From assembly GCF_004010195.1 (NCBI RefSeq), contig NC_057753.1:10416445-10437506 (forward strand): a DNA stretch of 21,062 bases, in the 5' to 3' direction. The stretch comes from Chiloscyllium plagiosum. Lineage: Eukaryota. Position numbers and translations under genes: made by a program. Below the pieces are notes generated by a model that saw only the letters and a list, made by a program, of their open reading frames with translations, had not been told where the DNA came from and searched no databases. Every line of letters begins with the position of its first letter. The stretch's first letter is position 1. This document shows positions 3,261 through 18,362 of the stretch, in pieces.

Positions 3261-3795
3261 TTGTTAAAGTACAGATTTGAGACGGCCCTGGGAATCCCTT
3301 GTGAACTGAACCTGTAAGCCTCTCTTGGTTTGTCCCGGAGATCGTACTCTTTGGAAGTCTGAAATAAAAAAAACCTCTTACAGACAGTTTATTTTAATTT
3401 TAGTCACTTAAAGCATAACACTGTTACTGAGAAGCTAAACTAACTGGGTTCTAATAACCCAGGCGAGTAGGATATCAGCTGTTCAAGACCCCTGGCAGGC
3501 TACTCTGCTGTACTGTCTCAAACAGGCTTCATTTATACAAAAAGTTTACAAAAAGCACTGCATGTTCTTAATTAGACAGATAACAGTAAAAGACAATAAT
3601 TCATAAGGAAGAAAAGTGAATTGACAGATCTGTGCGCACTGTGATCACTCCTACAGACCTTGAGCTATCCGTCAGGTGGGAAAAACAAATCCAGCCGAGT
3701 TAGGTATCTGCTGGTGAGATAAATTCCTATAAAGTAGTACCAGTCTAAATTAAGTGGGAGATGTCATAAGGTAACCTTGCATAGCTCACATATCT

Positions 3796-3995
3796 AGGTA
3801 AAAACAATGACTGCAGATGCTGGAAACCAGATTCTGGATTAGTGGTGCTGGAAGAGCACAGCAGTTCAGGCAGCATCCAAGGAGCTTTGAAATCGACGTT
3901 TTGGGCAAAAGCCCTTCATCAGGAATAAAAGCAATTAAAAGCAATTTATTCCTGATGAAGGGCGTTTGCCCGAAACGTCGATTTTACTGCTCCTC
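3796..3995. mobile_element. Small non-autonomous Penelope-like insertion: terminal repeat plus a partial inverted copy, with a 12-bp TSD
   Basis: GCTCACATATCT at 3784-3795 and 3996-4007. Inverted arms at ~3890-3929 and 3945-3984 each carry a hammerhead motif. Confidence 0.85.
3952..3979 (+). ncRNA. Minimal (PLE-type) hammerhead ribozyme motif, intact core
   Basis: CTGATGA A GGGC-GTTT-GCCC GAAAC GTC, with an ACGT palindrome in place of helix III. The minus-strand partner at 3895-3922 has GAAA changed to AAAA. Confidence 0.75.
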
Positions 3996-5022
3996 GCTCA
4001 CATATCTGATACACTGGTTTTACAAAATGGCTTCTTAGCAAGGAGGGCAAACATTTGACCATAAAATGACTTGCTGACAGATTGTGTCAGAATCTCTTCA
4101 ATGTTAGGTTTAGAACAATTTTAAGTTGGGAGCAGACTCTTGCTTTTTATCTTAAGCCCTGAATCATTTTGTACCTGAGGCTGAAATGTTCCCGTAAAGT
4201 TGCATTTAAACTGATTCATTAGTCTCAAATTAAACATGCTTTCTTTTCAGGGTTGTGATTCAAATTCAAATAAGACATAAGATCTGATTAGTTAGAATTG
4301 ACAGTGGGGCAGTCTGTGAAGTTTTAGAGTGGTGTGCAAGAACAGCAAGTAAGTTAAAGCTTCATCAATATTACCTTTTACAGAGTTTGCATTTCATAAC
4401 CAGTAATGGCTACTCAAAATTATCAAAGTCTCAAACATACAATTAAATTCAATCCATAGCAAGTAAGCACAAAGAGTTAATTTTCTACTGGCTTCAGCAG
4501 TCCCAGCGCTAAAATGGTCTCTCTGTCTCTCTCTCTTTCTCTCTGTGTCCTTTTGAACTCTCAAGTCAGGGACTTGTAACAGAAAAGATGTTTTTCCCTC
4601 TGTGTCTGCCTAGCTTGAAAGGGGTAATAAGAATCTGTTATAATTGATAGGATCTGACCGTCAATTACAAGGCTTTCGATAGTACCGAGTTTCATTTCAG
4701 GGTCAGAATCAAACACTGTCGTGAATTTCACAAGGGAACAGCCGTGAATGTTATCACTCGGTGTCCTGTTTACACAGATTCACTGATGTTAAGGCAAGTG
4801 TTCTTAATTGCCTTCGAGCATCCTGTTATCACTTGGTGAGAACAGATGTTTTAATCTTCTGCATAACATGGGTACCCCCTTTTTTTTCCCGGAGCCTCCT
4901 TGCCTGTCTATTTTTTAGTGTGCAGCAAATGTGTCCTATAATTCAACATTACATTTTAGTCTAAACGTTTAAAGGACAAGTTTTAAGGCTACAGACTTGC
5001 TCAGCCTCGTCTCAACCACCAA

Positions 5023-9150: not shown

Positions 9151-9466
9151 ACTCCACTTTCAAGGAACTATAAACCTGTACTCCAAGGTCTCTTTCTTCT
9201 GCAACATTCCCCTCAACTGTGTCAGTCCTGCCTGGATTGCTTGACCAAAATGCAACACCTCACATTTCTCTAAATTAAACTCCATCTAGCACACTTTAGC
9301 CTATCACCACATCTGATCAATTCTAATTTAAAGTGAATCTCCATCCCACACTCTCCCTCCATTCTTACTTTGCTGAACCTAATCCCTGCTGTACCTCATC
9401 CTGAAGGGTCTGGTTCATGCTGATTAACAGGGTCACACTCAGGAGGGATCTAATTGAAACACACAG
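9151..9466. repeat. Local duplication, copy 2
   Basis: Shares both junctions with 7914-8264 and has an internal deletion of about 30 bp. Confidence 0.85.
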
Positions 9467-9601
9467 TCCAAATTGAAACACACAGTTTCCTCCCACAGTC
9501 CAAAGATGTGCGGGTCAGGTGAATTGGCCATACTAAATTGCTGGAAATGTGTTGCTGGAAAAGCGCAGCAGGTCAGGCAGCATCCAGGGAACAGGAGAAT
9601 C

Positions 9602-9629
9602 GACGTTTCGGGCATAAGCCCTTCTTCAG
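9602..9629 (-). ncRNA. Minimal hammerhead ribozyme motif, intact core
   Basis: Minus strand reads CTGAAGA A GGGC-TTAT-GCCC GAAAC GTC. Confidence 0.75.
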
Positions 9630-9634
9630 GAACC

Positions 9635-9662
9635 CTGAAGAAGGGTTTATGCCCGAAACGTC
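9635..9662 (+). ncRNA. Minimal hammerhead ribozyme motif, intact core
   Basis: CTGAAGA A GGGT-TTAT-GCCC GAAAC GTC, with a U-G wobble closing stem II. Confidence 0.75.
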
Positions 9663-9906
9663 GATTCTCCTGTTCCCTGGATGCTGCCTGACCTGCTGCA
9701 CTTTTCCAGCAACACATTTCCAGCTCTGATCTCCAGCATCTGCAGACCTCACTTTCTCCTCATACTAAATTGCCCGTAGTGTTAGGTAAGGGGTAAATGT
9801 AGGGGTATGGGTGGTTTACGCTTCGGCGGGTCGGTGTGGACTTGTTGGGCTGAAGGGCCTGTTTCCACACTGTAAAGTAATCTAATCTAATCTCATCTAA
9901 TCTAAA

Positions 9907-12396: not shown

Positions 12397-12507
12397 ATAA
12401 TCTTAAAACTCCCACCCTAGGGAAAGGACACCCACCATTCACCTCCTCTATACCTCTCATGATTTTATTAACCTCTTTAAGGTCACCTCTGAACCTCGTG
12501 TGCTCCA

Positions 12508-12603
12508 GTGAAAAAGAGTGTGGTGCTAGAAAAGCACAGCAGGTCTGGCAGCATCTGAGGAGCAGGTAAATGGACGTTTCGGGCAGAAGCCCTTCATCAG
12601 GAA
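12508..12603 (-). mobile_element. PLE terminal-repeat fragment
   Basis: Matches 3843-3925 and 9548-9632. Confidence 0.8.
12573..12600 (-). ncRNA. Minimal hammerhead ribozyme motif, intact core
   Basis: Minus strand reads CTGATGA A GGGC-TTCT-GCCC GAAAC GTC. Confidence 0.7.
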
Positions 12604-12604
12604 C

Positions 12605-12800
12605 TGCTTTTTCCGGAGAGTAGTGAATCTATGGAATTCTCTGCCCAATGAAGCAGTTGGATGGGTTTTGCATGGTAGGGGAATTAAGGGTAGTTGGGAC
12701 AATGCAGAGGATGAGCTGAGACGATGGATAGATCAGCCATGATCTTAATGAATGGCGGTGCAGGTTGGATGGGCCAAATGGCCTACTCCCGCTCTTTTAC
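12605..12800 (+). mobile_element. CR1-type LINE 3' tail
   Basis: RVVNLWNSLP followed by the tail 'gatcagccatgatcttaatgaatggcggtgcagg...gatgggccaaatggcctactcc'. Confidence 0.8.
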
Positions 12801-17609: not shown

Positions 17610-18362
17610 TGGAGGTGCCGATATTGGACTGAGGTGGATAAAGTTTAAAAATCACACAGCACCAGGTTTTGTTCAACAGGTTTATTTGGAAGCACTGACT
17701 TTCGGAGCTTGTTCCTTCATCAAGTAGCTGTGGTGAAAATGTGTTGCTGGAAAAGCGCAGCAGGTTAGGCAGCATCCAAGGAGCAGGAGAGTTGACTTTT
17801 CGGGCATGAGCCCTTCTTCAGGAATCCTGCTGCACAGCTCAAGTAGCTGTGGAGCAGGATTGTAAGACACAGATTATATAGCAAAAGATCACCGTGTCAT
17901 GCAACTGATAGAATATATTAAACAAACCTAGATTGCTGTTAAGTCTTTCATCTTTTAGAATGTGTTGCAGGTTTTGGTTCATTAATCCGTAAATCCCAGA
18001 ACATCTTTTAAGTCACGTTCTCAAAATGACTTAACTTTTTTTTTAAAGTCTCAGCTCAGAAAATGCATTAAAGATGTGAGGTTCGTGTCTGTCAGTGTCA
18101 CGCTCTTGACTAAGACTGGTTCTATTTCCAAAGTAGGAATTTGTAAAATATTACATGGATTGATTGCCTTTTGAGCAAAATTGAATGTATCTGCAAATAT
18201 AATTCTGCCAATACAAATTCACCCCATAGAGTTATGCGTGTGTGTGTGCACGTTTGCGTGAGAGTGCGTGGAATAGTGTTTGCATGCTTGATAAAGTGAG
18301 TGTGAGGGTGTGTAAGCCTGTGAGTGTGTGTGTGTCTGAGAAAGAGCTGTCTATGAGAGAGG
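17610..18362 (-). mobile_element. PLE terminal repeat plus 3' region (hammerhead 17696-17723 with TTGATGA)
   Basis: Matches 20010-20103 and the reverse complements of 14020-14682 and 6953-7109. GT-rich tract at 18237-18360. Confidence 0.85.
17734..17838 (-). mobile_element. Nested PLE terminal-repeat insertion with a 14-bp TSD (hammerhead 17794-17821)
   Basis: TCAAGTAGCTGTGG at 17720-17733 and 17839-17852. Minus strand reads CTGAAGA A GGGC-TCAT-GCCC GAAAA GTC. Confidence 0.85.

Follow-up and report, generated by a model that had tools for sequence, protein, structure and literature searches.

The palindromic insertion studied here comes from a very abundant Penelope-like element (PLE): it is an ordinary copy of the end that bears the ribozyme, with a footprint that is already known for such elements, and is not a new kind of mobile element. 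We consider it highly probable that the locus received only the 3' end of an endonuclease-containing (EN+) PLE, as an insertion that was dead on arrival, and that its mirror half was made in that single event rather than inherited from a palindromic master. One of the two options in the original prediction was a PLE insertion with extreme 5' truncation and a partial inverted repeat, and this option is supported by the anatomy of the element's terminal piece, by its abundance and by the single target site duplication (TSD). Earlier work on PLEs has already described each of these features: inverted pLTRs, a tail on one side, TSDs, junction palindromes and minimal hammerheads (PMC3846280, PMC8557442, PMC11167929, PMC4209133). 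Throughout, the window is the whole 21,062-nt stretch of DNA that was analysed (C44:10416445-10437506), from a genome of 3.56 Gb.

Structure of the insertion

Re-reading of the sequence bore out the predicted 219-bp insert, 13-bp TSD and two inverted arms (Table 1). The inverted repeat pairs positions 9540-9630 with 9634-9724, with 91 nt on each side, 98% complementarity and a 3-nt spacer. Two mismatches separate the arms, both of them transitions: GGGC/GGGT in stem II, where a G-U pair is still formed, and GCGC/GCAC at a CpG. The inverted pair itself stood, and the arm limits were corrected against longer copies of the element to those listed in Table 1, with a single filler base at the inversion point. 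The inner end of the left arm (9632) lies 3 nt upstream of CUGA and its outer end (9542) is the short 3' end of the element (...CACATTTCCA). The final GC of the left TSD is possibly the first two bases of the element, shared by microhomology.

Table 1. Coordinates of the insertion, its parts and the interrupted host repeat (window positions).
Feature	Position	Strand	Description
Host SINE-like repeat broken by the insertion	9485-9900 (approximate)	+	From uninterrupted genomic copies; read loose ends at 9485, high depth to ~9919
Left TSD	9529-9541	.	CATACTAAATTGC, 13/13 identical to right TSD
Whole insert	9542-9760		219 bp, flanked by perfect 13-bp TSDs
Inverted arm	9542-9632	-	PLE 3'-end copy, tail-less; coordinates read against longer copy L008
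Minimal hammerhead core	9602-9629	-	CUGAAGA-A-GGGC UUAU GCCC-GAAAC-GUC; predicted cut after C at 9602
Filler base	9633	.	1 nt at the inversion point; unlike the parent sequence of either arm (against longer copies)
Direct arm	9634-9760	+	PLE 3'-end copy; starts 1 nt before CUGA and reaches the long 3' end
Minimal hammerhead core	9635-9662	+	Stem II GGGU/GCCC with one G-U pair; predicted cut after C9662
36-nt tail	9725-9760	+	Between the short and long 3' ends; right arm only
Right TSD	9761-9773	.	CATACTAAATTGC

When the flanks are joined with a single copy of the TSD, the resulting 37-nt site has 3,131 exact matches genome-wide. At the 5' truncation of the host repeat, AATTGAAACACACAGT is present twice, 19 nt apart, within window positions 9452-9486, and read loose ends put the break at 9485.

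The insertion had also been called young, which holds in a relative sense: its arms differ at 2 of 91 places, and some sampled copies show no difference at all. Across the 42 head-to-head copies that we sampled (see below), the arms differed at 118 of 3,183 compared places, and four copies with at least 66 places compared had no differences. Judged by arm divergence, the window insertion is recent, yet not exceptional in age.

The parent element

The sequence of the arms is abundant in the genome. The 38-mer that starts at CUGA has 27,158 exact matches in its GGGC form and 552 in its GGGT form, and a 35-mer located 3' of the cut site has 62,467, while each of the reversed-pattern controls had none. 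Thirty of the 552 GGGT-form loci were inspected, of which 12 extend upstream into a common longer sequence, 11 have an inverted arm upstream, with a different junction in each, and seven start within a few bases of CUGA and have TSDs of their own. Many long copies read N from ~120-340 nt upstream of the hammerhead onward, and the coding part reads N in the long copies L001, L008, L009, L016, L026 and L027. Because most of the parent's coding DNA reads N in the loci retrieved, the link to a reverse transcriptase (RT) consists of one endonuclease fragment and its match to a protein, P0001.

This fragment comes from L028, an unmasked copy whose upstream frames (LYIGETGR...REH and ...RRLEEECLIFRLGTLQPQGMNSDF) are GIY-YIG-like and have 82% identity over 51 aa to P0001 in a database search. 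P0001 is a protein of 359 aa from Chiloscyllium punctatum with the source label "uncharacterized protein"; it contains an RT-type YIDD motif and the motif LLYIGETGR...EH, and its nearest Atlas clusters carry RVT_1, HTH_animal and GIY-YIG. Matches to the Pfam GIY-YIG model were below the curated cut-off for both the L028 frames (E 0.062) and P0001 (E 0.0046). EN+ PLEs are defined by an RT that is followed at its C-terminus by a GIY-YIG endonuclease (PMC8557442, PMC11167929), and RT and GIY-YIG were both found for the source element, by way of the L028 fragment and P0001.

Two 3' ends were identified. The short 3' end (...CAGCAACACATTT(T/C)CAG), which is CA-rich, lies ~90 nt after the C of CUGA, and the long 3' end (...CACTTTCTCCT) lies 36 nt beyond it, at +126. 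Measured from GUC, the distances are ~62 nt and ~98 nt, respectively. The terminal piece of the element is made up of the minimal hammerhead, ~90 nt to the RT start region and an optional 36-nt tail; we infer the RT start sites from the genomic ends of copies. Among 47 long-ended arms, we found none in which an ORF follows the tail. In L016 the sequence reads N starting 80 nt after CUGA, so that the body of the element may follow the repeated end in this copy. L002, L020 and L024, long PLE copies on C1, have identical flanks on both sides and are therefore likely to be segmental duplicates rather than separate insertions.

Other PLE ends are present elsewhere in the window. At positions 3785-4007, a related variant of the PLE has left an older insertion, also head-to-head, with CUGAUGA cores at 3895-3922(-) and 3952-3979(+), ~15 nt between the arms, and arms that reach 7 nt upstream of CUGA. 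Its left arm has a tail-like end and its right arm stops early, ~47 nt after CUGA; GCTCACATATCT is repeated at ~3785-3796 and 3996-4007. A solo PLE-end copy at 17745-17870 (-) has a damaged core (GAAAAGTC) and a 14-nt TSD (CCACAGCTACTTGA), and the 13 nt between its TSD and the hammerhead (GCAGCAGG) resemble a very short inverted piece of the element. A solo copy of the CUGAUGA variant at 12505-12610 (-) ends near the short 3' end and lies inside another repeat.

Minimal hammerhead cores

An intact minimal hammerhead core had been predicted on each strand of the insertion, and this was confirmed, with no mismatches in either arm. Using the search pattern CTGANGA-N13-GAAACGTC and allowing at most one mismatch, six matches were identified in the window, versus none in 100 shuffles. 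Apart from the two cores of the insertion, these correspond to the pair in the older head-to-head insertion described above and to matches at 12573-12600(-) and 17794-17821(-). Across 306 kb (the window and the loci) there were 166 instances of the motif and none in reversed controls. N7 was A in 141 of the 166 instances, T in 19, C in four and G in two, the other core letters being fixed by the search pattern.

The core contains the extra base between positions 9 and 10.1 (CUGAAGA-A-GGGC...GCCC) and the G10.1-C11.1 pair. Loop 3 is absent and GAAACGUC yields a palindromic ACGU, so that helix III is possible only between two copies of the motif; the single-copy cores in the window insert are without helix III. 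Minimal hammerheads in metazoan PLEs have the boxes CUGANGA, GAAA and UH, the extra base between positions 9 and 10.1, the G10.1-C11.1 pair and no loop 3 (Cervera and De la Pena 2014, PMC4209133), and they sometimes lie close together on opposite strands (PMC4209133). The shark motif resembles them in its core boxes, its extra base, its G10.1-C11.1 pair, the absence of loop 3 with ACGU, and its occurrence as opposite-strand pairs. Stem II is 4 bp long in the shark core, compared to 7-8 bp in Schistosoma, and helix I has ~2 bp in the native context, as in the D. virilis variant (PMC4209133); the helix I expected of a minimal PLE hammerhead has ~4-5 bp.

Six of the 166 instances represent a second minimal-hammerhead family in the same genome, which has a stem II of GGAGC/GCUCC and an AGCU palindrome (for example, CUGAUGA-A-GGAGC GGC GCUCC-GAAAGCUA). 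This family presumably comes from another PLE lineage.

A search with hammerhead covariance models, which had been proposed as a check, returned no hit to types I, II, III, HH9 or HH10: no Rfam hammerhead family reached its gathering score in the whole window, and none matched positions 9450-9850 at E ≤ 10. The only Rfam matches within 9450-9850 at E ≤ 10 were sub-threshold miRNA hairpin models, which match because of the palindrome. In the native upstream context, helix I amounts to two adjacent pairs at most, and the minimum free energy fold is without helix I and is not a hammerhead. Within the palindrome CAGGA can pair with UCCUG over an internal loop, and the 91-bp hairpin dominates. The ~90-bp hairpin expected of a read-through transcript was reproduced as a fold prediction of 91 bp, with a predicted stability of the insert hairpin of -192.3 kcal/mol (z = -27.8; none of 200 shuffles was equally stable). 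By this fold prediction the hammerheads of the window copy are passengers, and would be unable to form within the 91-bp hairpin. Such minimal motifs have low activity in vitro (PMC4209133), and protein-assisted hammerhead cleavage has been reported (PMC11167929).

Head-to-head copies across the family

To characterise the family we took the first 100 of the 62,467 matches to the 35-mer anchor, all from one chromosome-scale contig, and aligned each of them to the natural copy L008. The anchor is located 3' of the cut site, so that the sample was not selected for any 5' structure; it favours young copies, since it derives from one contig and an exact 35-mer was needed. Fifty-nine of the 100 matches form 42 distinct head-to-head insertions. 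The other 41 are not head-to-head, and they include one further pair, 131 nt apart. Exact TSDs of 12-16 nt were found for 26 of the 42 head-to-head insertions.

The centres vary among the 42 insertions. Some recur: in five of the 42, one copy of 11 nt (-3..+7) lies between arms that start at GGGC, and in three the arms overlap on GAA. Recurrent centres such as ...CCCTTCTTCAGGAAGGGC... are compatible with priming or annealing through TTC/GAA. The 28-nt centre of the window insertion has 16 exact matches in the genome, itself included, and the 12 same-centre copies that we examined have different TSDs, a tail on either side and different sequence variants. The differing centres mark the palindrome as a by-product of insertion, with a centre formed afresh in each event, and not as a palindromic family.

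The inner ends of 52 of the 84 arms fall at -7..+3 relative to CUGA, a number that is slightly inflated where arms overlap. Of the remaining inner ends, 11 are at +4..+19, eight at +20..+32, seven beyond +32 and six far upstream. There is no sharp peak of inner arm ends at the predicted cut (+28), and +20..+32 holds eight of the 84. These ends give no support to hammerhead-cleaved RNA as the usual template: the 5' ends cluster at -3 and not at +28, where there is the loose +20..+32 group. Within this group, four truncated arms share C24 as their first base, which belongs to the ACGU palindrome and precedes the predicted cut by 4 nt. Among the 41 matches that are not head-to-head, 15 have 5' ends at -7..+3 and 19 continue upstream.

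The outer ends of the 42 pairs are short/long in 36 cases, long/long in two, short/short in one and of another kind in three. The 41 other matches have 23 short and 15 long ends, from which 48% mixed pairs would be expected. Short/long pairs are therefore in large excess over this expectation (36 of 39 classifiable pairs versus 0.48; binomial p = 4e-9). The window copy is typical of the family: its left arm is short-ended, its right arm has the tail, and the two inner ends, at -3 and -1, are separated by a single filler base.

In L114, L117 and L119, rare changes are mirrored in both arms. The two arms of an insertion therefore derive from a single template, and we rejected two independent RNAs as templates for the arms. 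We also considered whether the presence of GGGT in the direct arm and GGGC in the inverted arm, seen in all 11 palindromic loci among the GGGT-form copies, might be a signature of mechanism or of editing. This asymmetry is better explained by ascertainment, because the search used the rare GGGT form (552 versus 27,158 matches), and because the T occurs on the tailed arm of some copies but on the untailed arm of other copies.

Origin of the mirror half

We propose that the two arms would be made in a single round of insertion. The RT-endonuclease would nick the two target strands 12-16 bp apart, and each nicked 3' end would prime a cDNA on one shared RNA, at one of two adjacent internal start sites. 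Both cDNAs would extend to a preferred 5' end of the RNA, ~3 nt upstream of the hammerhead, and their identical 3' ends (...CTTCTTCAGGAA) would be joined through a TTC/GAA microhomology of a few bases. From the copies' sequences we infer an RNA 5' end near -3. The parent sequence TCATTC near -3 presumably resembles an initiator motif, with the modal end at -3 and not at the A at -4. RNA read starts in one RNA run did not pile up near -3, and 250 reads cross into the parent's upstream sequence. The short/long rule is broken by three of the 39 classifiable pairs, and three more pairs have other ends.

A similar process is known from L1 elements, in which twin priming generates an inversion during target-primed reverse transcription: both target strands prime, the joint shows microhomology and there is one TSD. 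The second priming of L1 takes place at a variable internal site. In contrast, the outer ends of the shark stumps lie at two defined sites and their inner ends are clustered at one place.

The junction sequences are compatible with this two-strand priming and equally with snap-back self-priming, in which the same PLE insertion would acquire its mirror half when a single cDNA, primed on one of the target strands, arrives at the 5' end of the RNA, folds its 3' end back on TTC/GAA and copies itself, with endonuclease or repair resolving the hairpin to give a one-sided tail. We regard snap-back as possible, although rather doubtful. It would account for the centres with a single copy of the 11 nt from -3 to +7 (five of 42, with a related form in three of 42) and for the rare variants common to both arms. 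In an earlier study, palindromes at the junction of inverted pLTRs of PLEs were read as evidence of self-priming (PMC3846280), and the tail has been ascribed to endonuclease-mediated resolution in another (PMC8557442). However, a self-copied arm ends where its template begins, and snap-back therefore predicts equal outer ends unless additional trimming removes exactly the 36-nt tail, whereas 36 of 39 pairs are unequal. The two start sites and both-strand extension of the Anolis enzyme explain the asymmetry without an extra step (PMC11167929).

The other option of the original prediction, an independently mobile palindromic family, did not hold up: the inversion point varies from copy to copy, which is what the prediction itself had named as grounds for refuting it. 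Under this option the palindrome would be a self-propagating, non-autonomous MITE-like or retrozyme-like family, transcribed and copied as a unit, and we consider this very unlikely. Its very high copy number, discrete ends and TSDs would fit such a family, as would the 16 occurrences of the window's exact 28-nt centre, and animal retrozymes have been proposed as derivatives of PLE pLTRs in a recent preprint (bioRxiv 10.64898/2026.07.22.740005). Against this, centres vary both in the sample of 42 insertions and in the 11 palindromic loci of the first 30, and the 12 copies that do have the same centre differ in variant, TSD and tail side. The termini are unequal, and hence there are no terminal inverted repeats of the MITE type; units in direct tandem are absent, and the copies are not bounded by the hammerhead cut site as retrozymes are. 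By analogy with the Anolis element (PMC11167929), copies that end at the RT start would also be expected to lack the downstream RNA used for priming.

Both element classes were also considered as assignments for the locus and rejected. Assignment as a MITE conflicts with the unequal termini (a 36-nt tail on one of them), the variable centres and the TSD of 12-16 nt. Assignment as a retrozyme conflicts with the inverted arms, with the absence of a direct tandem at the locus, and with family boundaries at -3 and +90/+126 instead of the cut site. Animal non-LTR retrozymes are similar to the shark insert in being non-coding, hammerhead-bearing, PLE-related and of high copy number, but they are direct tandem repeats between hammerhead cut sites and have circular RNAs, whereas the shark insert is an inverted pair that ends at putative RT start sites.

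An assembly artefact or later rearrangement, in which the locus would be a fold-back chimera or would have been hit by two separate insertions, is the least credible explanation and extremely improbable: tandem and inverted PLE structures do trouble assemblies (PMC8557442) and contigs from four runs leave the locus unspanned, but a single perfect 13-bp TSD surrounds the whole unit, 42 sampled insertions are built in the same way and differ in their TSDs wherever a TSD could be identified, the loose ends at 9632, 9724 and 9760 recur, at family level only, in runs under three organism labels, and two independent insertions would leave two TSDs and arms of unrelated variants.

Sequencing reads and RNA editing

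Short-read contigs from four runs, under three organism labels, have enormous depth and break at the repeat, and none of them bridges the locus. The contigs have loose ends at 9632, 9724 and 9760 as well as joints in which the insert is skipped, and both are signals of the family as a whole. The RNA run X21, which has the same species label as the window, contributed 2,703 reads in both directions. As 97% of these continue into unlike sequence, they come from other copies of the element.

In window positions 9636-9730, the X21 reads have 33 variable places, including 13 A>G versus four T>C. The GAAA adenines at 9656-9658 are read as G in 11/77, 21/78 and 24/82 reads of one direction (14-29%), whereas the corresponding share in the contigs from two further runs does not exceed 0.5%. 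Transcripts of the palindrome had been suggested as an ADAR substrate, and the A>G excess weakly favours this idea at the level of the family. These reads are no more than a hint of A-to-I editing of hairpin transcripts across the family. The ends of RNA reads showed no pile-up in run X21.

Comparison with known Penelope-like elements

The window insertion and its family carry the footprint of EN+ PLEs, namely a one-sided tail, an inverted 5'-truncated copy adjoining a direct copy within one TSD, and a hammerhead in the pLTR. The PLE tail is described as extending the insert by 30-40 bp, in many cases on just one side (PMC8557442), and a 31-bp tail is described on one of two inverted pLTRs (PMC3846280). 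Pen2a_Av of Adineta vaga (PMC3846280) and the scheme of Craig et al. 2021 (PMC8557442) resemble the shark insert in having an inverted 5'-truncated copy adjoining a direct copy in one TSD, a 30-40 bp tail at one end only, a palindromic or microhomologous inversion point, and a hammerhead in the repeated end. They differ from the shark insert in that the latter has no ORF between its arms and both of its copies are cut to ~95-130 nt, just upstream of the hammerhead.

A second point of comparison is PAc (Poseidon) of Anolis carolinensis, in which reverse transcription starts at two adjacent internal sites shortly after the hammerhead, and the sequence that separates them is the tail (PMC11167929). 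These start sites belong to an AC-rich stem-loop, at a distance of ~85-92 nt from the cut, and the PAc protein, a predicted dimer, nicks and extends both target strands and inserts without needing hammerhead cleavage (PMC11167929). The shark element is similar in that its hammerhead is closely followed by two neighbouring 3' ends, with the tail between them. PAc has been characterised biochemically, whereas the shark start sites are putative and were placed from genomic ends. The AUG of loop II in the window copy opens a frame of 25 codons only, which suggests that the ORF does not start where it does in PAc, or that its start was missed.

Significance

Taken by itself, the single locus is without importance, being a routine non-coding retrotransposon stump inside a SINE. 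Taken together, the copies of the family could give rise to a very large number of long dsRNA hairpins from the shark genome. As a tentative and somewhat unlikely extension, the stumps could be a genome-wide fossil record of a dimeric RT-endonuclease acting on both strands at once, from two start sites of one RNA whose 5' end would lie ~3 nt upstream of the hammerhead (possibly at the initiator-like TCATTC), with one tailed and one untailed arm produced in more than 90% of events and with tens of thousands of perfect 90-bp read-through hairpins that would be A-to-I edited. Head-to-head stumps make up approximately half of the sampled insertions, in a pattern that is compatible with extension of both strands from two start sites as observed in vitro, and these family-level statistics may be useful to specialists in PLE integration.
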